Shown here piece by piece: positions 3,315 to 36,661 of a stretch of 64,000 nucleotides of DNA. The position numbers were made by a program, and so were the translations under genes. Source of the DNA: TPA_inf: Saccharomyces (taxonomy: Eukaryota); NCBI GenBank assembly GCA_000146045.2, contig BK006946.2, positions 384,001 through 448,000 of the forward strand, written 5' to 3'. The notes under the pieces were generated by a model, which worked only from the letters and a program-made list of their open reading frames with translations, made no database searches and was not told where the DNA came from. Each line of letters opens with the position of its first letter. The first letter of the stretch is position 1.

Positions 3315-4244
3315 TCACTTGAATTTTTTGCCAAACATTATGAGTTGCAACTGATCGTACAATGAGATGACACCAGCTGCAGCGACTCCTCTAAATATGT
3401 TGGCACCACAGCCCTTGAACAAGGAATACGCGCCCTCTTTCTGAACAATCTTTCTCAAACAGTCCAGAGCACCGTCGTACTTGATGGTCTGGCCCGAAGT
3501 CATCATCATCCTTCTTCTTACCGTATCCAAGGGATACGACGCAGTGGAAGCACCCATGGTAATGACCCAACCTAATAGGAAAGAGGCAACAAAGGACCCC
3601 TCTAGAGCCCCCGTCAACAGCACAGGCTTGAAAGAATCGTACAAGCCAAAGTACAGACCTCTGTAGACAATGATACCCAGAACTGAGGGCACAAACCCAC
3701 GGTACAGACCCAACAACCCGTCCGTTTTCAGTGTCTTCTTATACACGTCTAGCAATCCATTAAACTGTCTTTGCGAGGTTGACTTAGAACCCCTAGCATC
3801 CGCTGCAAGCCGCGTCCTTGCGTAGTCCAAGGAATATACAAATAGAAGCGACAAACCACCAGCCGCTCCACCAGAGAAAAGATTTCCAGCAAACCACTTG
3901 GCATACCCATCGCGCTCTCTGTCGTAACTCAACAACGACTTAATTTTGTCTTTGAAGGCAAAATTCAGCGCCTGCGTGGGGAAATACCGGAGAACATTGG
4001 CGGTGTTACCCCTCCAGAACGACACAATACCTTCATGAGTCGCAGTCCTCTTGAAGCAATCTAAAATTCCCTTGTACCGTGTATCCAACGAGCCCTGTTT
4101 AAGCATCTCTTCTTGATTCTGCATCAACAGTTTCACCCGTTCAATGGGAGCGGCACCCGTCTTCGCAATGGCAGCAGAAACGCCGCCCATAAGGAAGTCC
4201 ACACCGAAGTGTGACTGCTGAGTCTGTGTTTCTGTGTGAGACAT
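3315..4244 (-). CDS. AAC1: Mitochondrial ADP/ATP carrier, 309 aa
   Basis: Three mitochondrial-carrier repeats. The ADP/ATP-carrier signature RRRMMM is present (…[12 protein letters not shown]…). Confidence 0.9.
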
Positions 4245-4570
4245 TACTGCTGTAAAAAGGAAAAATAGAAAAGAATAACAGATACGAGAATCTGTGCTGC
4301 CTTCTTTGCGATAATGCCTTGGCTTGCCTATTTCACGGTTACAGGAATAATAACATGTTCATACCGTTTCAGGACCAATAAATGGTCTTCTGCGAGAGAA
4401 AAAGGACACTCTCCGTCCGACAGAAATAAGCTTTACTTTCCGGGTGCGAATCAGCCCGTTGCGCCTGGGGTGGTCCCTACAGTACGCTGAGTCGCCGATA
4501 AAGACCCTCCGCCTAGAGCTAGGCGAGGCTGACTTAGGCAGGCCCAACAGGCAAGGCCCATCTTCAAAAG

Positions 4571-4578
4571 TGCACCCA
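4571..4578 (+). promoter_or_regulatory. Aft1 iron-responsive element (TGCACCCA), about 250 bp upstream of FET3
   Basis: Exact match to the Aft1 core PyPuCACCCPu (tgcacccatttg). FET3 is a classic Aft1-regulated iron-regulon gene. Confidence 0.6.
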
Positions 4579-4682
4579 TTTGCAGGTGCTCTTATTCTCG
4601 CCAATTGCGACAGAAAATGAAGGATGCACTCAAACAGTCGATCCTTCGAGGGAGTATGCCAAGGCCTCGTGCATGTAGTGCG

Positions 4683-4684
<2 letters not shown>

Positions 4685-4714
<30 letters not shown>
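4685..4714. repeat. (TA)n dinucleotide microsatellite, about 14 units
   Basis: A direct read of tatatatatatatatatatatatatata followed by tgtatgta. Confidence 0.9.
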
Positions 4715-4720
<6 letters not shown>

Positions 4721-4821
4721 AGCAGGCCATGCCCTATAGCTCTTGTTCTATAAGCGATGGATAGGCATAGGAAACGAAGAGGACCCCAGTGTAAGGAAGA
4801 GTAGCAAAAAATTAGAACTAG

Positions 4822-6732
4822 ATGACTAACGCTTTGCTCTCTATAGCCGTTTTGCTTTTCTCGATGCTCTCGCTAGCACAAGCGGAGACGCACACGTTTA
4901 ATTGGACCACTGGCTGGGACTACAGGAACGTTGATGGGCTAAAGAGCCGTCCCGTGATCACCTGTAATGGCCAGTTCCCATGGCCAGATATAACGGTCAA
5001 CAAAGGTGACCGTGTGCAGATTTACTTGACCAACGGAATGAACAACACCAATACTTCTATGCATTTCCACGGTCTCTTCCAAAACGGAACCGCCTCTATG
5101 GACGGTGTGCCCTTCTTGACGCAATGTCCAATTGCGCCAGGCAGTACTATGCTTTACAATTTCACGGTGGACTACAATGTAGGCACCTACTGGTACCATT
5201 CACACACGGACGGTCAATATGAAGACGGGATGAAAGGTCTTTTCATCATCAAGGATGATAGCTTCCCCTACGATTACGATGAGGAACTTTCTTTATCGCT
5301 TAGTGAGTGGTACCACGACTTGGTCACGGACTTGACGAAGTCGTTCATGAGTGTTTATAATCCGACAGGTGCTGAGCCCATCCCACAGAACTTGATTGTT
5401 AACAACACGATGAATCTGACATGGGAAGTCCAGCCCGATACGACGTATCTTTTGAGAATTGTCAACGTGGGTGGGTTCGTTTCGCAGTACTTTTGGATCG
5501 AGGACCACGAAATGACCGTGGTCGAAATCGACGGTATCACTACCGAGAAGAACGTAACGGATATGCTTTACATCACTGTCGCTCAGAGATATACAGTCCT
5601 GGTTCACACTAAAAACGACACGGACAAAAATTTCGCCATCATGCAGAAATTTGATGACACCATGTTGGATGTCATTCCAAGTGATTTACAGCTGAATGCA
5701 ACCTCTTATATGGTCTACAACAAAACCGCTGCGCTGCCCACACAAAATTACGTGGATTCAATTGATAACTTCTTGGACGATTTCTACTTGCAACCGTACG
5801 AGAAAGAAGCCATCTATGGCGAGCCAGATCATGTGATTACCGTTGACGTTGTTATGGATAACTTGAAAAACGGTGTGAATTACGCCTTCTTCAATAATAT
5901 CACCTATACTGCACCAAAAGTTCCTACTTTGATGACCGTTTTGTCTTCAGGTGATCAAGCAAACAACTCCGAAATCTACGGTTCAAACACGCACACTTTC
6001 ATCCTAGAGAAGGATGAAATCGTGGAGATTGTGCTAAATAACCAGGACACAGGTACCCATCCTTTCCATTTACATGGTCACGCTTTCCAAACCATCCAGA
6101 GAGATCGTACATATGATGATGCCCTAGGTGAAGTTCCTCACAGTTTCGATCCGGACAACCACCCTGCCTTCCCAGAATACCCAATGAGAAGAGATACTTT
6201 ATACGTTAGACCACAATCCAATTTCGTCATCAGGTTTAAAGCCGATAACCCAGGTGTTTGGTTCTTCCATTGTCATATCGAATGGCATTTGTTGCAAGGT
6301 TTGGGTCTTGTTCTCGTGGAGGATCCTTTTGGTATCCAAGATGCTCATTCTCAACAACTCAGTGAAAACCACTTAGAAGTTTGCCAGAGTTGCTCTGTGG
6401 CCACTGAAGGTAACGCCGCTGCCAATACACTGGATTTAACTGATTTAACTGGTGAAAATGTTCAGCATGCCTTCATTCCTACCGGTTTTACCAAAAAAGG
6501 TATTATTGCCATGACATTCTCCTGCTTTGCCGGTATTCTTGGTATTATCACAATTGCAATTTATGGTATGATGGATATGGAAGATGCGACCGAAAAGGTT
6601 ATTCGAGACTTGCACGTGGACCCTGAAGTCTTGCTAAATGAGGTTGATGAAAATGAAGAGCGTCAGGTAAACGAAGATCGTCATTCCACTGAAAAGCATC
6701 AATTTTTAACTAAAGCCAAACGGTTCTTCTAA
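4822..6732 (+). CDS. FET3: Multicopper ferroxidase of high-affinity iron uptake, 636 aa
   Basis: Multicopper-oxidase copper-ligand motifs are present (HFHG…, HSH…, HPFHLHGH, HCHIEWH). It has an N-terminal signal peptide and a C-terminal transmembrane segment. Confidence 0.92.
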   Translation: MTNALLSIAVLLFSMLSLAQAETHTFNWTTGWDYRNVDGLKSRPVITCNGQFPWPDITVNKGDRVQIYLTNGMNNTNTSMHFHGLFQNGTASMDGVPFLTQCPIAPGSTMLYNFTVDYNVGTYWYHSHTDGQYEDGMKGLFIIKDDSFPYDYDEELSLSLSEWYHDLVTDLTKSFMSVYNPTGAEPIPQNLIVNNTMNLTWEVQPDTTYLLRIVNVGGFVSQYFWIEDHEMTVVEIDGITTEKNVTDMLYITVAQRYTVLVHTKNDTDKNFAIMQKFDDTMLDVIPSDLQLNATSYMVYNKTAALPTQNYVDSIDNFLDDFYLQPYEKEAIYGEPDHVITVDVVMDNLKNGVNYAFFNNITYTAPKVPTLMTVLSSGDQANNSEIYGSNTHTFILEKDEIVEIVLNNQDTGTHPFHLHGHAFQTIQRDRTYDDALGEVPHSFDPDNHPAFPEYPMRRDTLYVRPQSNFVIRFKADNPGVWFFHCHIEWHLLQGLGLVLVEDPFGIQDAHSQQLSENHLEVCQSCSVATEGNAAANTLDLTDLTGENVQHAFIPTGFTKKGIIAMTFSCFAGILGIITIAIYGMMDMEDATEKVIRDLHVDPEVLLNEVDENEERQVNEDRHSTEKHQFLTKAKRFF

Positions 6733-20322: not shown

Positions 20323-21573
20323 TTATTTTTTACTTAATTTCATCCATTTAGGTACTCTATTTAAAGTCTTTTTGATACTTGTAGCGTTATCAGAAGGGCC
20401 CTGTGGATTGGATTTATTTATCGTATTAACTGATGGGGTTGTCCTCGTTTCGTGTGTGATTTTTTGTGCGTCTTCCAAAAGATGAGCCTTTATTAATGGG
20501 CCATTAGAATTTGAATTTGTTTCAAAAAGCAGCATTGTTTTAGAGCCAAATTCCAGGTCATCCAGTAGCTTCTTATCGTCTTTAGCCAAGGGTTTGAAAG
20601 GATGAGATTGGTTTAACGTAAAAGGCATGTTCTCATCGATCAGGAACTGCGACACGACGTTATAAACTGTACGCATGTCTTCATTGGGTTTGAATGCTAT
20701 TTGAATATGGCTTCTATCGGGGAACTTGACTCTCAGCAAACACTCAGATATAGCCTTATTTTTCTTTGGCAAGTTGTTGGCTGATTGCTCTCTAAGTCTC
20801 TTTGTCAAAATAGGACCACCCAAAGTACCAGCCTTCGATGATAACATTTTTTGGTATTTCTTGGCTTGTTCTACTGTCAATTCATAATCTTCTTCATCCT
20901 CGATTTGATCCTTGATAACTGCTAATGGCTCATCCGAGGGCAAAAACACAGAAGGTTTATGTAGTTCGTGAGGTGGTAGTGAAGCAACCGTTTCCGGGTT
21001 CGTCATCGTAGGGGGAGTTTGTTTTGGGTGAATAGCGCTATTAGCGCTAATGCCCTCAGAATGAGATGTATTATTAAAAATCAATCTAACTGACGAAGGC
21101 TCCTGAATCCCTAAATTTTCGAGAGTCAAATTCTCATCCTTAATTGTTTTGAACTCTATTATCTTGGAAAAGACCTGGATCTTAAAATCATCTCCCGCAG
21201 CGCCGCTCATCTGTCGCAAGATAGGGGCAATTGGTTGGTCAGATGGCATTTCTTTAACCACGGAATCTCTTCCTGGGATTTGAAACCGTATTTTGATCGT
21301 ATTGAATGGAATATCTTCGCGGTTGGTCTTATTCGCCACCGGAAAATTACTACTTTTAGATAATTCTAAGTTGACACCCGTTGGTAAGTTTAGAAGCCTC
21401 CATGGCAAATCTAATGGCACCGGTTTATCCAAATGTATCAATGACCAGTCGTTTGACGAGGTGTGCAGTTGAAAGAATTGTATGGATTGGTGTAACACAT
21501 CGTTTAGTGTTGAATTCAACGAAACTTTACATTTGAAAAGTTGGAAGTTATACTTCACGGTAACCATAGGCAT
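20323..21573 (-). CDS. UBX4: UBX-domain Cdc48 cofactor, 416 aa
   Basis: A 416-aa ORF with a C-terminal UBX-like region. Confidence 0.75.
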   Translation of the reverse strand: MPMVTVKYNFQLFKCKVSLNSTLNDVLHQSIQFFQLHTSSNDWSLIHLDKPVPLDLPWRLLNLPTGVNLELSKSSNFPVANKTNREDIPFNTIKIRFQIPGRDSVVKEMPSDQPIAPILRQMSGAAGDDFKIQVFSKIIEFKTIKDENLTLENLGIQEPSSVRLIFNNTSHSEGISANSAIHPKQTPPTMTNPETVASLPPHELHKPSVFLPSDEPLAVIKDQIEDEEDYELTVEQAKKYQKMLSSKAGTLGGPILTKRLREQSANNLPKKNKAISECLLRVKFPDRSHIQIAFKPNEDMRTVYNVVSQFLIDENMPFTLNQSHPFKPLAKDDKKLLDDLEFGSKTMLLFETNSNSNGPLIKAHLLEDAQKITHETRTTPSVNTINKSNPQGPSDNATSIKKTLNRVPKWMKLSKK

Positions 21574-22303: not shown

Positions 22304-23584
22304 ATGTTGAAAGAGCCCTCAGTTCGCTTGCGGGAGGCTATTATTGAAGGCAATTTACTTATAGTGAAAAGATTATTGCGACGGAATCCGGATTTGCTAA
22401 CCAACATAGACTCAGAGAACGGATGGAGTTCATTACATTACGCCTCATACCATGGAAGATACCTTATATGCGTGTATTTAATTCAGCTGGGGCACGACAA
22501 GCATGAACTAATAAAAACCTTTAAAGGAAACACCTGTGTGCATTTAGCATTAATGAAAGGGCACGAGCAAACCTTACATTTACTTTTGCAACAATTTCCG
22601 CGATTTATCAACCATCGCGGAGAGAATGGTAGAGCCCCCATCCATATAGCATGTATGAACGATTACTACCAATGTCTGAGTCTGTTGATAGGAGTTGGTG
22701 CTGATTTATGGGTAATGGACACTAATGGCGACACGCCGCTGCATGTATGCCTGGAGTATGGCAGTATAAGTTGTATGAAGATGCTTCTCAATGAAGGTGA
22801 GGTGTCCTTGGATGATAATGTCAGGGACAAGGGAAATTGGAAGCCAATAGATGTAGCACAAACGTTTGAAGTAGGTAATATATATTCAAAAGTGTTAAAA
22901 GAGGTGAAAAAGAAGGGGCCACCGTTGGGTGCAGGCAAAAAACCAAGTTCATTCAGAACTCCTATACTAAATGCGAAGGCCACTTTCGAGGACGGGCCTT
23001 CCCCAGTTTTAAGCATGAATTCGCCATATTCGCTCTATTCCAATAATAGTCCGTTGCCGGTATTACCAAGAAGGATATCAACGCATACAACAAGCGGTAA
23101 CGGTGGGAATCGGAGGAGTTCTATCACAAATCCAGTATTCAACCCACGAAAACCAACCTTGTCTACGGACAGTTTTTCGTCAAGCTCAAATTCCAGCTCG
23201 AGACTAAGAGTGAACTCCATCAACGTCAAGACTCCAGTAGGTGTGTCGCCCAAGAAAGAGCTTGTATCTGAATCAGTACGACACAGTGCAACACCAACAA
23301 GTCCGCACAACAACATCGCGTTGATTAATAGATACTTGTTGCCTAACAAGAGCAATGACAACGTGAGAGGAGACTCACAGACAGCTACAATCAACGATGA
23401 CGGTGGCGGCGGCAATGGCGGTGATGCCACTATAGGAATGGGACTAAGAAAGGACCCGGACGATGAGAACGAGAACAAGTACAAGATTAAGGTAAACAAT
23501 GGCGAGCCGAGGAGACGAGTGTCACTTCTGAACATACCCATCTCAAAATTAAGAAATAGCAATAACACGCGTGCAGAAGATTGA
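22304..23584 (+). CDS. AVO2: TORC2 component with N-terminal ankyrin repeats, 426 aa
   Basis: Ankyrin repeats are visible (…GWSSLHYASYHGRYLICVYLIQLGHD…, …NTCVHLALMKGH…, …RAPIHIACMNDYYQCLSLLIGVGAD…, …GDTPLHVCLEYG…), followed by a Ser/Asn-rich tail. Confidence 0.88.
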   Translation: MLKEPSVRLREAIIEGNLLIVKRLLRRNPDLLTNIDSENGWSSLHYASYHGRYLICVYLIQLGHDKHELIKTFKGNTCVHLALMKGHEQTLHLLLQQFPRFINHRGENGRAPIHIACMNDYYQCLSLLIGVGADLWVMDTNGDTPLHVCLEYGSISCMKMLLNEGEVSLDDNVRDKGNWKPIDVAQTFEVGNIYSKVLKEVKKKGPPLGAGKKPSSFRTPILNAKATFEDGPSPVLSMNSPYSLYSNNSPLPVLPRRISTHTTSGNGGNRRSSITNPVFNPRKPTLSTDSFSSSSNSSSRLRVNSINVKTPVGVSPKKELVSESVRHSATPTSPHNNIALINRYLLPNKSNDNVRGDSQTATINDDGGGGNGGDATIGMGLRKDPDDENENKYKIKVNNGEPRRRVSLLNIPISKLRNSNNTRAED

Positions 23585-23708: not shown

Positions 23709-24566
23709 ATGCGTTCTTCGGTATATAGTGAGAACACTTACAACTGTATACGAACATCGAAGGAGCACCTAACAGAAAGAAGGAGGGTCGCCATGGCGCC
23801 AATGTTCCAACATTTCTTAAACTTATGCGTGGAAAAATTTCCTGAATCCATCGAGCACAAGGATACAGATGGAAACGGTAACTTCACCACCGCTATTTTA
23901 GAAAGGGAGATTATCTACATCCCCGAAGATGACACTGACAGTATTGACAGCGTTGACAGCCTCAAGTGTATAAACTACAAGCTGCACAAATCTCGCGGCG
24001 ACCAAGTGCTGGACGCCTGTGTGCAATTGATAGACAAGCACCTGGGCGCCAAGTATCGCCGGGCCTCGCGCATTATGTACGGCAACAGGAAACCATGGAA
24101 GGCAAACAAACTCGCAGAGATGAAAAGCGCCGGCCTTGTGTATGTCTGTTACTGGGACAACGGCGTGCTAGGTGCATTTACTTCATTCATGCTTACAGAG
24201 GAGACGGGTCTCGTCGAAGGTGACGCTTTACACGAGGTTAGCGTGCCCGTGATATACCTTTACGAAGTACATGTAGCTAGCGCGCACCGCGGGCATGGAA
24301 TCGGTCGGCGGCTACTGGAGCATGCACTGTGCGATGGCGTAGCTCGACACACCCGCCGCATGTGCGACAATTTCTTCGGTGTAGCACTCACCGTATTCAG
24401 TGATAACACTCGGGCCCGGCGACTATATGAGGCGCTTGGGTTCTACCGCGCTCCGGGATCACCCGCACCAGCATCACCCACAATTCGTCACACGCGACAT
24501 GGTGGGGGACGTGTAGTCGTGCCCTGCGATCCGCTTTATTACGTATATTGCCTTCACATGCCGTGA
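23709..24566 (+). CDS. NAT4: Histone H4/H2A N-terminal acetyltransferase (GNAT fold), 285 aa
   Basis: The ORF has a GNAT-like acetyl-CoA-binding core (…VHVASAHRGHGIGRRLLEHAL…). The 3' half is unusually GC-rich (see findings). Confidence 0.8.
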   Translation: MRSSVYSENTYNCIRTSKEHLTERRRVAMAPMFQHFLNLCVEKFPESIEHKDTDGNGNFTTAILEREIIYIPEDDTDSIDSVDSLKCINYKLHKSRGDQVLDACVQLIDKHLGAKYRRASRIMYGNRKPWKANKLAEMKSAGLVYVCYWDNGVLGAFTSFMLTEETGLVEGDALHEVSVPVIYLYEVHVASAHRGHGIGRRLLEHALCDGVARHTRRMCDNFFGVALTVFSDNTRARRLYEALGFYRAPGSPAPASPTIRHTRHGGGRVVVPCDPLYYVYCLHMP

Positions 24567-25153
24567 AAGCCGACAGGGACAACGCGCGATAAAAAAAAAA
24601 TTAAAAGTAAAACTACGTACGCGGCGGCGCGACTCGAATCCTTGACTCCGACTGAGGAGACCCGAACAACGCTCCCTGCTCTCCGCCTTCGGCGCCTTCC
24701 GATAACTGCGCACGGCAAGGAGTAGTGGCGATAACGGTGTTTATTGCCGGTTTTTTCGTTTTTCTTCTTGATTTTCTTCTTTTTTTTCCTCAAAAGATGT
24801 GCTGTAGCCTCCGCTGTTGTTTTTTTTTATCCTACCAAGGCGCATCATCCTGTCATGATCTGCGCTGGATAGTATTTATACTACTACTCCGTCTGGATTT
24901 ACTAAACTTTGTCTCTCTTTTGATGTAAAGTTAAAGAAGAATTACGAAAAAAGAGAGAAAAAATAGAAACAAATAATAGGAATTAAGGCCTTGTAGCAAT
25001 CAAAAAAAAAAAGAAAAAAAAGGAATTTTTTTTGGAAGAAAACTTGAACAAAACAATTCCTCAAGAAGGAACAGGTACAAGAAAAGATTTAACAGAAGGA
25101 AAACTAATAGGCAACAGTAGGCAAATAGTAAAGGGACATATCATATTTGAGCA

Positions 25154-26626
25154 ATGAATGCGGACCATCACCTGCAACAGCAGCAGCAACAGCGACAACA
25201 GCATCAACAACAACAGCATCAACAACAACAGCATCAGCATCAGCATCAACAGCAGCAGCACACGATATTACAAAATGTGTCGAACACTAACAATATCGGC
25301 AGCGATTCGCTGGCGTCACAGCCTTTCAACACGACTACTGTTTCCTCTAACAAGGACGACGTTATGGTGAACTCTGGGGCAAGAGAACTTCCAATGCCCT
25401 TACATCAGCAGCAGTATATATACCCTTACTATCAGTATACAAGTAATAACAGTAACAACAATAATGTGACGGCTGGTAACAATATGTCTGCGTCGCCGAT
25501 TGTCCATAACAACAGCAACAACAGCAACAACAGCAATATTTCTGCTTCTGATTACACTGTCGCAAACAACAGTACTAGCAATAATAACAATAATAATAAT
25601 AATAACAACAATAATAACAATAATATTCACCCAAACCAGTTTACTGCGGCCGCAAATATGAACTCAAATGCTGCAGCGGCTGCTTATTACTCCTTCCCCA
25701 CTGCGAATATGCCAATACCGCAACAGGATCAACAATATATGTTCAATCCTGCTTCATACATAAGCCATTACTATTCAGCAGTTAACAGCAATAACAATGG
25801 TAATAACGCCGCTAACAATGGCAGCAACAACTCTTCTCACTCAGCCCCAGCCCCGGCCCCCGGTCCACCCCATCACCATCACCATCATAGTAATACACAC
25901 AACAACCTCAACAATGGTGGTGCTGTAAATACAAACAACGCTCCTCAGCACCATCCAACGATAATAACGGATCAATTTCAATTCCAACTACAACAAAACC
26001 CTTCTCCAAATTTGAATCTCAATATTAACCCGGCACAACCTCTGCATCTACCTCCTGGTTGGAAAATAAACACTATGCCGCAACCACGTCCTACGACAGC
26101 ACCTAACCATCCCCCTGCGCCGGTGCCTTCTTCGAACCCTGTGGCCTCGAACTTGGTTCCTGCCCCATCATCAGACCATAAATATATCCATCAATGCCAA
26201 TTTTGTGAGAAGTCTTTCAAAAGAAAATCATGGTTGAAAAGGCACCTATTGTCACACTCGCAACAAAGACATTTTCTATGCCCTTGGTGCTTAAGCAGGC
26301 AGAAGAGAAAAGATAATCTTTTACAGCATATGAAACTCAAGCATACAAATTATTTATTAGACGAACTCAAGAAAAACAACATCATCTTTAACTACAACAA
26401 TTCTTCCTCCTCTAATAATAACAACGACAATAATAATAATAATAACAGCAATAGCGCTAGCGGCAGTGGCGGTGCCGGTGCCGCGGCGGCAGCAGCAACA
26501 GCTCCCGAAAATGAAGATGGAAACGGTTACGATACAAACATCAAGACTTTAATCAATGATGGTGTACTGAATAAGGACGACGTTAAACGTGTTTTGAATA
26601 ACCTTATTGTTAGTCACAACAAATAG
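25154..26626 (+). CDS. MOT3: C2H2 zinc-finger transcription factor with poly-Q/poly-N prion-like domain, 490 aa
   Basis: Two C2H2 fingers (CQFCEKSFKRKSWLKRHLLSH and FLCPWCLSRQKRKDNLLQHMKLKH). There are long Q-, N- and H-rich tracts. Confidence 0.92.
   Translation: MNADHHLQQQQQQRQQHQQQQHQQQQHQHQHQQQQHTILQNVSNTNNIGSDSLASQPFNTTTVSSNKDDVMVNSGARELPMPLHQQQYIYPYYQYTSNNSNNNNVTAGNNMSASPIVHNNSNNSNNSNISASDYTVANNSTSNNNNNNNNNNNNNNNIHPNQFTAAANMNSNAAAAAYYSFPTANMPIPQQDQQYMFNPASYISHYYSAVNSNNNGNNAANNGSNNSSHSAPAPAPGPPHHHHHHSNTHNNLNNGGAVNTNNAPQHHPTIITDQFQFQLQQNPSPNLNLNINPAQPLHLPPGWKINTMPQPRPTTAPNHPPAPVPSSNPVASNLVPAPSSDHKYIHQCQFCEKSFKRKSWLKRHLLSHSQQRHFLCPWCLSRQKRKDNLLQHMKLKHTNYLLDELKKNNIIFNYNNSSSSNNNNDNNNNNNSNSASGSGGAGAAAAAATAPENEDGNGYDTNIKTLINDGVLNKDDVKRVLNNLIVSHNK
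25175..25262 (+). repeat. Imperfect CAG/CAA/CAT trinucleotide repeat encoding poly-Q/H at the MOT3 N-terminus
   Basis: A direct read of cagcagcagcaacagcgacaacagcatcaacaacaacagcatcaacaacaacagcatcagcatcagcatcaacagcagcagcac. Confidence 0.9.
25560..25630 (+). repeat. AAT/AAC trinucleotide repeat encoding poly-Asn within MOT3
   Basis: A direct read of aataataacaataataataataataacaacaataataacaataat. Confidence 0.9.
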
Positions 26627-26761: not shown

Positions 26762-27265
26762 TTACAACATCTCTCTAACAACGGCCTCGTGAGGGAAATC
26801 GTCATCTGTAGGATTTTTGATAATGTTCGTATTCTGGAACTCTTGGTGTTTAGTATATGCTACCGCATAACTGATTGACGATATCGTTAGCCCGACAGCT
26901 ACCACAATTAGACTCGTAGCCATCACTGCAATGGAAATATACTGGATTATCGCCATTGCTAGATAGAAAAGACATCTCCATCCATTTGTTTCAAATCTCT
27001 TGATGAATTCAATGAAATTATCGCTAAGGGGACAGATTTTCAACAAAAATGGTATTTCAATGAATAGGATCACTAACCCTTGGATTATACTAATGATACC
27101 AAAAGCTATCACCCCACTAACGTGGAACAGATTCGCTATCCCGAGTGCAATACACAAGATTATGTTGATATATCCAAACCATCTACCATATACGCTAAAG
27201 TTGAAACTTTTCAAATCCTTCACCATACCACCCACATTGATGAACTGTCCTAAACTTAAAGCCAT
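26762..27265 (-). CDS. TVP18: Small Golgi membrane protein (4 TM), 167 aa
   Basis: A 167-aa ORF consisting almost entirely of four hydrophobic helices. Confidence 0.8.
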   Translation of the reverse strand: MALSLGQFINVGGMVKDLKSFNFSVYGRWFGYINIILCIALGIANLFHVSGVIAFGIISIIQGLVILFIEIPFLLKICPLSDNFIEFIKRFETNGWRCLFYLAMAIIQYISIAVMATSLIVVAVGLTISSISYAVAYTKHQEFQNTNIIKNPTDDDFPHEAVVREML

Positions 27266-36587: not shown

Positions 36588-36661
36588 TGATTTCGCCCAG
36601 GATCGAACTGGGGACGTTCTGCGTGTTAAGCAGATGCCATAACCGACTAGACCACGAAACC
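36588..36661 (-). tRNA. tV(AAC): tRNA-Val, anticodon AAC
   Basis: The reverse complement reads GGTTTCGTGGTCTAGTCGGTTATGGCATCTGCTTAACACGCAGAACGTCCCCAGTTCGATCCTGGGCGAAATCA. It folds as a cloverleaf with the anticodon loop cTTAACAc. Box A (TGGTCTAGTCGG) and box B (GTTCGATCC) are present. Confidence 0.93.

Follow-up and report, generated by a model that had tools for sequence, protein, structure and literature searches.

The NAT4 Locus and Its GC-Rich Island

NAT4 (YMR069W) occupies positions 23709–24566 on the plus strand of the 64-kb window (the whole stretch of DNA analyzed here), with AVO2 and MOT3 as neighbours, and encodes a protein of 285 amino acids with an overall GC content of 51.9% and GC1/2/3 values of 0.57/0.42/0.56. 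Its product was 99% identical to S. cerevisiae Nat4p, for which NatD is among the names given by the source, and matched both the Pfam family Acetyltransf_1 (GNAT; E = 1e-12) and the structure of S. pombe Naa40 (4UA3; E = 8e-7). With a GNAT fold that includes an acetyl-CoA motif, and with homology to Naa40, the protein is the NatD/Naa40 GNAT N-terminal acetyltransferase. The first 93 codons of the gene (23709–23987, plus strand) are poorly conserved, with a dN of 0.22 between S. cerevisiae and S. paradoxus, whereas codons 94–285 (23988–24563, plus strand) encode the conserved catalytic domain and form the coding part of a GC-rich island.

A GC-rich patch at 23950–24730 had been claimed by the first-pass annotation against a background of about 38%, and this was borne out. 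The interval has a GC content of 55.6% compared to a window mean of 38.2%, lies about 4.6 standard deviations above that mean (781-bp windows, sd 3.8%) and ranks first among the 781-bp windows of the 64 kb, the runner-up (3460–4240) reaching 49.8%. A maximal-scoring-segment search placed the island, without strand, at 23992–24730 with 56.3% GC, and the 200-bp maximum of 62.5% was found at 24280–24479. The CpG observed/expected ratio was 1.28 in the island versus 0.85 in the 64-kb window.

The accompanying claim that the 5′ half of NAT4 and AVO2 are of normal composition held for codon positions 1 and 2 of the NAT4 N-terminal part, but not for its third positions, where GC3 is already raised, nor for the 3′ part of AVO2 (22691–23471, plus strand), which at 45.8% GC in S. 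cerevisiae ranks fourth among the 781-bp windows and constitutes a weaker shoulder of the regional peak. Since GC3 in the N-terminal 93 codons (0.55) nearly equals that of the island (0.57; neighbours, 0.40–0.46), the step at about 23950–23990 is carried by codon positions 1 and 2, which rise from 0.41/0.34 to 0.65/0.46, and not by position 3. The sharp edges that the island has in S. cerevisiae are structural in nature: at the 5′ edge, a fast-evolving acidic/polar N-terminal segment gives way to the conserved GNAT domain, and the 3′ edge is formed by a conserved, CGG-rich and probably regulatory block of MOT3, next to a T-rich promoter tract.

Codon Choice and Amino Acid Composition of NAT4

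The catalytic domain has a GC content of 0.561, compared to 0.464 predicted for its amino acid sequence under local codon usage and 0.388 in reference genes. About 44% of this excess is due to amino acid composition, with GARP residues making up 33% of the domain, and about 56% to codon choice, that is, to rare CGN and GC-ending codons. Among the 18 Arg codons of the domain, 17 are CGN, one is AGG and none is AGA, whereas CGN accounts for 36% of Arg codons in reference genes (p = 4e-7); in the N-terminal part, four out of six Arg codons are AGR. The unusual codon usage that had been proposed for the catalytic half is therefore right as a description, but it is a pattern and not a cause.

Using a set of optimal yeast codons, with AGA for Arg, we obtained Fop values of 0.33 for the domain, 0.54 for the N-terminal part and 0.38–0.45 for the neighbouring genes. 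The domain is not codon-optimized, and its low Fop together with the lack of AGA among its Arg codons led us to reject translational selection as the cause of the island. Synonymous divergence between S. cerevisiae and S. mikatae was lower in the domain (dS of 0.60) than in the neighbours (0.85–1.36), which could also point to selection on synonymous sites. GC3 of NAT4 is maximal in the middle of the gene, at about codons 80–160, and not at its ends.

The Downstream Spacer and the MOT3 Promoter

The 3′ flank of NAT4 (24567–24609, plus strand) carries an A-rich tract with a local dip in GC and is probably the 3′-end processing region of the gene. Beyond it, the GC-rich state runs on into 84 bp of weakly to moderately conserved non-coding DNA (24610–24693, no strand), with 63% GC in S. 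cerevisiae and 49–63% in the six remaining Saccharomyces sequences. The 3′ end of the island is formed by a nearly invariant block (24697–24762, no strand), in which 53 of the 65 positions of 24697–24761 are identical in all seven Saccharomyces sequences and which is a probable MOT3 upstream regulatory module. It is followed by the T-rich tracts of the MOT3 promoter (24763–24835, no strand), where the drop to 27–42% GC produces the sharp 3′ edge of the island.

Within the invariant block, the element CGCAGTTATCGG (24699–24710, minus strand) fits the Hap1-type consensus CGSnnnTAnCGS, and MOT3 has been reported as a Hap1 target (PMC7397035). Conserved genus-wide upstream of MOT3, the element is a candidate Hap1-type UAS, a class of site marked by a CGGnnnTAnCGG-type direct repeat; as the consensus matched three times in 64 kb versus 1.6 times by chance, a count not above chance, the motif alone is weak evidence.

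The island does not seem to contain a structured RNA or a tRNA, both of which we rejected: ARAGORN found no tRNA in the island, an Rfam search of the island and spacer gave no match at the gathering threshold or at E ≤ 1, and the GC-rich spacer showed no excess of folding over shuffled sequence (z = +0.60 and +1.71). A motif common to the Saccharomyces spacer and a GC-rich block located 3′ of NAT4 in a Kazachstania-like yeast was also sought, and none was found.

Extra Stop-Free Frames

Four overlapping stop-free frames had been reported in this region, and all of them were present at exactly the coordinates given. They comprise an alternative frame of NAT4 on the plus strand (23966–24223, 85 amino acids), with stops in four of the six other sequences, and three antisense frames on the minus strand, at 24397–24582 (61 amino acids, not conserved), 24474–24713 (79 amino acids, an open frame in S. 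paradoxus and S. uvarum only, with a different length elsewhere) and 24554–24793 (79 amino acids, not conserved). Each of the four is interrupted by stops or changed in length in most of the other species. Including the NAT4 frame, the island with 100 bp on either side contains five ORFs of at least 60 amino acids, compared to 2.5 ± 1.4 in mononucleotide shuffles, 8% of which reach five. With a number close to chance for such a GC content and no conservation, the four extra frames were rejected as genes and are considered spurious.

The Island in Saccharomyces and in Outgroup Yeasts

The island was found at the same syntenic position in all seven Saccharomyces loci. GC of the homologous columns was 0.556 in S. 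cerevisiae, 0.548 in S. paradoxus, 0.544 in S. mikatae and 0.588 in S. kudriavzevii, and it was stronger in S. eubayanus (0.626) and S. uvarum (0.653–0.660), while the left flank had 0.36–0.39 in each Saccharomyces species compared. Synonymous GC of NAT4 was about 0.56 in S. cerevisiae, S. paradoxus and S. mikatae and about 0.8 in S. uvarum and S. eubayanus. In the latter two species, GC3 was 0.41–0.44 in UBX4, 0.70–0.72 in AVO2, 0.79–0.81 in NAT4, 0.59–0.62 in MOT3 and 0.56–0.59 in TVP18, the corresponding values in S. cerevisiae being 0.40, 0.46, 0.56, 0.45 and 0.43. Genome-wide, GC3 peaks have been described as keeping their position among Saccharomyces species, as being highest in S. bayanus and as the places where species differ most (Lynch et al. 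2010, PMC2997560). The regional peak around NAT4 matches this published rule, with a conserved position and a higher amplitude in the S. bayanus/uvarum lineage.

In five yeasts outside the genus (N. castellii, N. glabratus, K. unispora and two Kazachstania-like yeasts), NAT4 had only 30–37% GC and did not stand out from its surroundings, and GARP was 0.13–0.19 in these outgroups versus 0.33–0.40 in Saccharomyces. Saccharomyces consensus and outgroup majority disagree in 41 alignment columns; GC at the first two codon positions went up in 30 of these and down in 4 (binomial p = 6e-6). Orthologues that share their composition through protein constraint had been named as an alternative by the first-pass annotation, and this was upheld in part: the composition is shared throughout the genus and about 44% of the excess lies at the protein level, but the outgroup Nat4 domain is encoded at 30–37% GC, and third positions and the non-coding flank are GC-rich as well, so that the origin of the island does not lie in protein constraint.

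Pairwise distances of the island from S. cerevisiae (12.4% for S. paradoxus, 17.7% for S. mikatae, 21% for S. kudriavzevii and 26% for S. uvarum) fitted the species tree and resembled those of the neighbouring genes. In an exhaustive protein search, the best identity outside the genus was 40–45%, and the named best non-Saccharomyces matches belonged to the expected sister genera Naumovozyma, Kazachstania/Maudiozyma, Nakaseomyces and Lachancea. The peak is old, syntenic and vertically inherited; the lateral or introgressed segment that had been suggested is contradicted by synteny, tree-like distances and sister-genus homologues, and introgression or horizontal transfer of the island was rejected.

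Substitution Bias and Recombination

At NAT4 third positions, the S. eubayanus and S. uvarum branches accumulated 11.1 W→S changes per 69.6 W sites and 10.4 S→W changes per 314.4 S sites (Fisher p = 3e-4), a per-site W→S rate 4.8 times the S→W rate. The resulting GC3* of 0.83 is close to the current value of 0.82, and both species appear to still maintain the NAT4 peak.

Polarized substitutions in the island were net S→W in the other lineages, with W→S/S→W counts of 18/27 in S. cerevisiae and 10/23 in S. paradoxus. Third-position equilibrium GC in S. cerevisiae/S. paradoxus was about 0.5 in NAT4, indistinguishable from 0.46 in the AT-rich control UBX4, and S. cerevisiae itself therefore shows no sign of a locus-specific bias at the present day. 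The third-position results of three-taxon and six-taxon parsimony conflict in part, with a GC3* of 0.60 for S. cerevisiae versus a pooled 0.48–0.51. Parsimony polarization is biased towards 0.5, giving UBX4 a GC3* of 0.46–0.55 despite an actual GC3 of 0.33–0.35, so that erosion and stationarity are inseparable at synonymous sites. Synonymous sites of S. cerevisiae are not gaining GC, and we do not claim erosion. Among Nat4 protein variants of the S. cerevisiae cluster (n = 15, one frameshifted allele removed), replacements were of W→S type in six cases and of S→W type in eight, numbers too small to inform direction.

The island locus, which lies at about chrXIII 407.7–408.7 kb in SGD coordinates, falls between chrXIII 404,032 and 412,419, an interval without any entry in a published list of Spo11-oligo-free stretches (minimum length 500 bp), which is a weak hint of recombination activity. 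A search of the literature on NAT4/YMR069W with GC content or hotspots gave nothing relevant. The strength of gBGC in largely selfing, clonal yeasts is debated. A correlation of GC3 with recombination is known in yeast, where GC is highest in short genes and gene ends close to break sites (PMC3020949); hotspots in promoter intergenic regions have conserved positions and strengths across Saccharomyces (bioRxiv 10.1101/023176), and gBGC has been measured in tetrads (PMC3649680).

Discussion

Of the causes offered by the first-pass annotation, GC-biased gene conversion or a recombination hotspot remains the best, with indirect support. We favour, with moderate confidence, the interpretation that the NAT4 island of S. 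cerevisiae is the remnant of an old GC peak left by a long-standing GC-favouring fixation bias, probably gBGC, on the Saccharomyces stem; that the bias came from gene conversion linked to meiotic hotspots is what we infer. In such a scenario, a local GC peak would have arisen on the stem with its centre at NAT4 and shoulders in AVO2 and MOT3, and a persistent fixation bias, whose most probable source is GC-biased gene conversion, would have pushed both synonymous sites and amino acid replacements of NAT4 towards G+C. The outcome would be the rare GC-rich codons (CGN for Arg, GC-ending) and the Gly/Ala/Arg/Pro-rich catalytic domain. Purifying selection on the now-conserved domain would then hold GC at codon positions 1 and 2, and in S. 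cerevisiae, S. paradoxus and S. mikatae growth of the peak would have ended, probably with slow relaxation. As in a gBGC tract, synonymous sites and adjacent non-coding DNA hold an excess of GC beyond that explained by amino acids or optimal codons. The mid-gene GC3 maximum of NAT4 fits a simple distance-from-break model only loosely.

Functional constraint on its own, which we consider unlikely, would derive the GC from an Arg/Gly/Ala-rich acetyl-CoA-binding GNAT domain, from CGG-type transcription factor sites of MOT3 and from synonymous selection (on mRNA structure, nucleosome occupancy or slow translation), with no neutral drive. The contribution of amino acid composition to the domain's excess (about 44%), the strong conservation of the domain within the genus compared to the AT-richer N-terminal part, a dS below that of the neighbours, and the nearly invariant, regulatory-looking 3′ end with its Hap1-type motif are all in line with it. 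However, five outgroup yeasts encode the domain at 30–37% GC with GARP of 0.13–0.19, and the GNAT fold therefore does not need a GC-rich composition. The replacements were directional, 30 raising GC versus 4 lowering it, and the codons used are the rarest in yeast, with a low Fop. Moreover, the peak reaches the neighbouring genes in S. uvarum and S. eubayanus as well as weakly conserved non-coding DNA, in which neither an RNA family match nor excess folding (z = +0.6 and +1.7) was detected.

A local GC-biased mutation process (e.g., error-prone repair synthesis), or a reversed causality in which GC-rich sequence attracts recombination, is quite unlikely in our view. It would agree with the effect on all three codon positions and the non-coding flank, but synonymous divergence of the island is below that of the neighbours, contrary to a mutational hotspot, and reversed causality leaves the start of the GC rise on the Saccharomyces stem unexplained. 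Mutation-accumulation spectra of yeast are AT-biased, which also counts against mutation. In its favour, high-GC sequence has been reported from experiments to raise both mutation and recombination rates in yeast (PMC6064992); since GC can itself raise recombination, cause and effect may run in either direction. Replacement of the 3′ part of NAT4 by a laterally transferred or introgressed GC-rich segment is extremely improbable. Only the compositional contrast with its sharp edges would suggest it, against identical synteny in seven of seven Saccharomyces loci, distances that match flanking genes and species tree, and nearest homologues outside the genus that come from sister genera with at most 40–45% identity. 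Transfer after the origin of the genus is effectively refuted, and a transfer from an unsampled donor to the ancestor of the genus, though conceivable in principle, has nothing in its support.

Under the favoured gBGC interpretation, the island is a fresh example of a known phenomenon and involves no new mechanism. Conserved GC3 peaks of Saccharomyces chromosomes were reportedly described by Sharp and Lloyd in 1993 and by Bradnam and co-workers in 1999. Like them, the NAT4 peak has kept its position, reaches its greatest height in the S. bayanus/uvarum lineage, is lower in S. cerevisiae and marks the place where the species differ most. Unlike those peaks, which are 15-gene moving averages over tens of kb, the NAT4 island covers a single gene and less than 1 kb in S. 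cerevisiae, is carried by amino acid composition and CGN Arg codons as much as by GC3, and has structurally defined edges. The published peaks have been ascribed to recombination-associated biased gene conversion (PMC2997560), and gBGC effects on codon and amino acid usage in Saccharomyces have been documented (Marsolier-Kergoat 2011, PMC3020949; Lesecque et al. 2013, PMC3649680).

NAT4 resembles such genome-wide gBGC trends in being short, in having promoter intergenic regions on its flanks, in its GC-ending non-optimal codons and in its GARP shift. Effects of this kind on codon and amino acid usage in Saccharomyces sensu stricto are also said to have been treated by Harrison and Charlesworth in 2011. 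In contrast to statistical trends across a genome, NAT4 looks like an extreme individual case, with GARP doubled compared to outgroups and 17 of 18 Arg codons being CGN. It is quite conceivable, though we put it forward only tentatively, that NAT4 is an unusually clean single-gene case in yeast, in which a non-adaptive GC drive remodelled the catalytic domain on the stem (GARP roughly doubled, Arg codons nearly all CGN) before purifying selection froze it, the drive still holding GC3 at about 0.8 in S. uvarum and S. eubayanus and having largely lapsed in S. cerevisiae.

Mouse Fxy (Mid1) is said to span the pseudoautosomal boundary, as reportedly described by Perry and Ashworth in 1999 and by Montoya-Burgos and co-workers in 2003, and its sharp rise in GC, with GC-raising replacements, has reportedly been ascribed to very high local recombination and gBGC. 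As in Fxy, the sharp rise in GC is limited to part of a conserved gene and comes with many GC-raising amino acid replacements, and in the rise at all codon positions of Fxy we see a further likeness to NAT4. Fxy, however, lies at a known recombination boundary and its change is recent and lineage-specific, whereas the boundary in NAT4 coincides with a protein-domain junction and the event is old and genus-wide.

The locus illustrates that a GC island with sharp edges and a foreign look can, in S. cerevisiae, represent a composition peak inherited by the whole genus, that amino acid composition and rare codons can become the main store of such a peak when its synonymous signal has faded, and that island edges can reflect protein-domain and promoter architecture and not a boundary of recombination or transfer. 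Should the link to conserved meiotic hotspots hold, the difference in GC3 between S. uvarum/S. eubayanus (about 0.8) and S. cerevisiae (about 0.56) would make it possible to compare the intensity of gBGC directly among species at a single orthologous gene, and one could test the GC-driven Nat4 replacements for neutrality, harm or compensation. If the GC-drive reading is true, NAT4 would be a natural paired system, active versus lapsed, for gBGC strength and its protein cost, and a yeast counterpart of mouse Fxy. A sharp compositional break within a yeast chromosome is also presented by the GC-rich left arm of Lachancea kluyveri chromosome C, which has been interpreted as an introgression (PMC7449078); unlike that arm, which extends over about 1 Mb and is of distinct evolutionary origin, the NAT4 island measures 0.8 kb, is syntenic and fits the species tree.

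Composition and limits of the island

The GC-rich island that the first-pass annotation placed at 23950-24730, over the 3′ part of NAT4 and its downstream spacer, was confirmed, with a GC content of 55.6% against a 64-kb mean of 38.2% (sd 3.8%, 781-bp windows), the highest value of all 781-bp windows, the next one reaching 49.8%. A maximal-scoring-segment search returned 23992-24730 (56.3% GC), the maximum at the 200-bp scale lies at 24280-24479 (62.5%), and the CpG observed/expected ratio is 1.28 in the island and 0.85 in the window. NAT4 (YMR069W; 23709-24566, plus strand) is flanked by UBX4 (20323-21573, minus) and AVO2 (22304-23584, plus) on one side and by MOT3 (25154-26626, plus) and TVP18 (26762-27265, minus) on the other. 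Its product shares 99% identity with S. cerevisiae Nat4p, carries a GNAT domain (Pfam Acetyltransf_1, E = 1e-12) and matches the solved structure of S. pombe Naa40 (4UA3), so the gene names initially assigned were correct.

The 5′ edge of the island falls where a poorly conserved N-terminal segment gives way to the conserved domain, and the step at about 23950-23990 is one of codon positions 1 and 2, which rise from 0.41/0.34 to 0.65/0.46. The earlier description of the 5′ half of NAT4 as normal in composition thus holds for these two positions (0.41/0.34) but not for GC3, which is 0.55 there, compared with 0.57 in the island and 0.40-0.46 in the neighbours. The 3′ edge is sharp because a conserved block directly meets the T-rich MOT3 promoter tracts (27-42% GC). 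Four additional stop-free frames had also been reported, and all are present exactly at 23966-24223 (plus) and at 24397-24582, 24474-24713 and 24554-24793 (minus). Five ORFs of at least 60 aa were found, including the NAT4 frame, against 2.5 ± 1.4 in shuffles of the island, 8% of which reach five, and none of the four extra frames remains open throughout Saccharomyces; they are unremarkable.

Codon usage and amino-acid composition

The conserved GNAT catalytic part of NAT4 (codons 94-285, 23988-24563, plus strand), hereafter the domain, has a GC content of 56.1%, compared with 46.4% expected from its amino-acid sequence under the codon usage of the window's 23 long ORFs; these reference genes have 38.8% on average. 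About 44% of the excess resides in amino-acid composition and about 56% in synonymous codon choice. Gly, Ala, Arg and Pro (GARP) make up 33% of the domain and 18-24% of the neighbours. The suspicion of unusual codon usage in the catalytic half was borne out, since 17 of its 18 Arg codons are CGN (7 CGC, 5 CGG, 3 CGA, 2 CGT) and none is AGA, whereas the CGN share in reference genes is only 36% (p = 4e-7). Of the six Arg codons among the N-terminal 93, four are AGR. Optimal codons account for a fraction of 0.33 of the domain and 0.54 of the N-terminal part, which rules out translational selection as the cause of the GC excess.

The NAT4-MOT3 spacer

Beyond the NAT4 stop codon an A-rich tract comes first, followed by a GC-rich 84-bp block (24610-24693, 63% GC) of only moderate conservation. 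At 24697-24761, 53 of 65 positions are invariant over seven Saccharomyces sequences. The conserved block (24697-24762) contains a Hap1-type motif CGSnnnTAnCGS (CGCAGTTATCGG, 24699-24710, minus strand), GGCGATAACGG, CGG-N9-CCG and further CGG elements. MOT3 is among the reported Hap1 targets (PMC7397035), and the block is probably an upstream regulatory module of MOT3. In a Kazachstania-like yeast (locus L010), a non-coding block of 51-57% GC (2475-2775) lies between an AT-rich NAT4 (36% GC) and an Asn-rich MOT3-like ORF; no motif common to this block and the Saccharomyces spacer was found. The NAT4 coding island may be younger than a GC-rich element upstream of MOT3.

Outgroups and Saccharomyces relatives

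Outside the genus, an exhaustive HMMER search against 1.8 billion representatives returned no Nat4 homologue beyond about 45% identity, and the named best matches (Naumovozyma castellii, Kazachstania africana, Maudiozyma barnettii and M. humilis, Nakaseomyces glabratus, Lachancea fermentati) belong to the sister genera that one would expect, in support of vertical descent. Five outgroup NAT4 loci have 30-37% GC, the same as their own surroundings, and their proteins show GARP of 0.13-0.19, FYMINK of 0.28-0.42 and mixed Arg codons. Between the Saccharomyces consensus and the outgroup majority 41 columns differ, with GC at codon positions 1-2 going up in 30 and down in 4 (p = 6e-6). AT-rich outgroup genes together with this asymmetry place the GC rise, and with it a large shift in amino-acid composition, on the genus stem, and show that the domain can function without GC richness. 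NAT4 lies beside a DNA ligase IV-like gene and a subtilase in N. castellii, downstream of a NIF-domain gene in N. glabratus, and downstream of a PIGO/GPI13-like gene in K. unispora (L009) and a Kazachstania-like yeast (L011); the AVO2-NAT4 adjacency may hence be specific to Saccharomyces and perhaps as old as the GC peak.

We compared the S. cerevisiae locus with those of S. paradoxus-like and S. mikatae-like yeasts (labels assigned by sequence distance), S. kudriavzevii, S. eubayanus, S. uvarum and a close S. uvarum relative. The gene order UBX4-AVO2-NAT4(-MOT3-TVP18) was found in every Saccharomyces locus compared, and so was the island, which gains in strength in the S. eubayanus/S. uvarum clade. 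The island columns had a GC fraction of 0.556 in S. cerevisiae, 0.548 in S. paradoxus, 0.544 in S. mikatae, 0.588 in S. kudriavzevii, 0.626 in S. eubayanus, 0.660 in S. uvarum and 0.653 in its relative, with 0.36-0.39 in the left flank of each species. Similarly, GC3 of the domain was 0.57, 0.55, 0.56 and 0.64 in the first four species, against 0.80-0.82 for S. eubayanus and S. uvarum. In the latter two, GC3 is also raised in AVO2 (0.70-0.72), MOT3 (0.59-0.62) and TVP18 (0.56-0.59), with UBX4 at only 0.41-0.44, and the peak there spans several genes with NAT4 at its centre. Genome-wide, Saccharomyces GC3 peaks keep their positions between species, reach their highest values in S. bayanus and show the largest between-species GC3 differences (Lynch et al., 2010, PMC2997560); the NAT4 peak behaves in this way. 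An introgressed or lateral segment, proposed earlier, is rejected, since the island is present at all seven Saccharomyces loci and distances within it follow the species tree and are similar to those of flanking genes.

Direction of recent substitutions

Parsimony polarisation of the whole island on four terminal branches gave W (A/T) to S (G/C) and S to W counts of 18 and 27 in S. cerevisiae, 10 and 23 in S. paradoxus, 8 and 19 in S. eubayanus, and 10 and 11 in S. uvarum, that is, a net S to W change on three of the four, with losses plainest in the non-coding flank and at replacement positions. Along the S. eubayanus and S. uvarum branches, third positions of the domain changed from W to S 11.1 times over 69.6 W sites and from S to W 10.4 times over 314.4 S sites. 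The equilibrium GC3 (GC3*) of 0.83 is close to the present 0.82 (Fisher p = 3e-4), so that a GC-favouring bias appears to be still active in this clade. In the S. cerevisiae/S. paradoxus clade GC3* was about 0.5 (0.48-0.60 by method), which did not differ from the AT-rich control UBX4 (0.46). As this control reveals, parsimony estimates of GC3* are drawn towards 0.5, and our conclusion is therefore limited to the GC of the S. cerevisiae island no longer rising; erosion at synonymous sites is not claimed. A relaxation of GC3 from about 0.8 towards about 0.38 over the lineages' synonymous divergence, which is a rough estimate of our own, ends close to the observed 0.56, so that in quantitative terms a decaying relic is plausible. 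The domain has a somewhat lower synonymous divergence than the neighbours, which argues against a mutational hotspot.

Origin of the GC excess

These features match the standard signature of GC-biased gene conversion (gBGC) or an equivalent fixation bias. The excess touches every codon position and extends into the non-coding flank, the codons in use are non-optimal, the replacements go one way although the background is otherwise conserved, the height varies by species at a fixed position, and the peak reaches neighbouring genes where it is strong. The causes first suggested are partly supported: most probably the island records an old drive of the gBGC type, and transfer or introgression is rejected. 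Such a bias would have raised GC at NAT4 on the genus stem; the record is kept in the protein and codon make-up of Nat4 and ends, towards the 3′ side, at the conserved, probable MOT3 promoter module. Lesecque et al. (2013, PMC3649680) measured gBGC in yeast meioses, hotspots in promoter-containing intergenic regions conserve their positions and strengths across Saccharomyces (Lam & Keeney, bioRxiv 10.1101/023176), and NAT4, a short gene with such regions on both sides, fits the published picture (Marsolier-Kergoat, 2011, PMC3020949). We infer the link to recombination at the NAT4 locus itself; in a published list, none of the stretches of at least 500 bp free of Spo11 oligos falls within chrXIII 404,032-412,419.

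Pure functional constraint would account for the conserved domain and the conserved promoter block, but it fails on the AT-rich outgroup enzymes, the rare codons and the spread of the peak into neighbouring genes, and we consider it unlikely. Slightly less probable still, though perhaps a contributor, is a local mutational bias or an attraction of recombination by GC, an idea found in Kiktev et al. (2018, PMC6064992); the low dS counts against it, and it leaves the start of the GC rise unexplained. A literature search found no paper tying NAT4 or YMR069W to GC content or hotspots, and the island adds a single-gene case, not remarked on before, to the known conserved Saccharomyces GC peaks. It is of modest interest, and would be of somewhat more if measured hotspot activity were found to go with the difference between S. 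cerevisiae and S. uvarum/S. eubayanus.

Additional observations

The N-terminal 93 codons of NAT4 (23709-23987) evolve very fast between S. cerevisiae and S. paradoxus (dN 0.22, dS 0.91, nucleotide distance 26%) by comparison with the domain (dN 0.066). The first ATG of S. cerevisiae NAT4 (23709-23830 region) is common only to the S. paradoxus-like ortholog; called ORFs start at the position of codon 32 in S. kudriavzevii and S. eubayanus (MFQ/MFK) and at about codon 41 in S. mikatae and S. uvarum, and the commonest member of the S. cerevisiae Nat4 cluster has 257 aa. The real start codon may lie downstream of the annotated one. This cluster (P0001) holds 168 distinct protein sequences at 90% identity or more. 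One of 15 variants examined (268 aa) differs at nearly all positions from about residue 235 to the end, which looks like a frameshift and suggests that Nat4 loss-of-function alleles segregate in S. cerevisiae.

A structured RNA in the island was rejected by Rfam family search and by folding against shuffled sequence. ARAGORN called a tRNA-Val(AAC) at 36588-36661 (minus strand), and Rfam, run over the entire window with gathering thresholds, gave no match, tRNA family included, a disagreement that looks like a tool or filter quirk and not biology. Two contigs from one synthetic-metagenome assembly (L001 and L006) end 200-300 bp past the NAT4 stop, in the T-rich tract beyond the island, probably because the assembly broke in low-complexity sequence. 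Second in GC content within the window is 3315-5300 (about 49-50% GC), a stretch that lies over ORFs at 3315-4244 (minus strand, GC3 0.56) and 4822-6732 (plus strand, GC3 0.51), and may be a further local GC3 peak.
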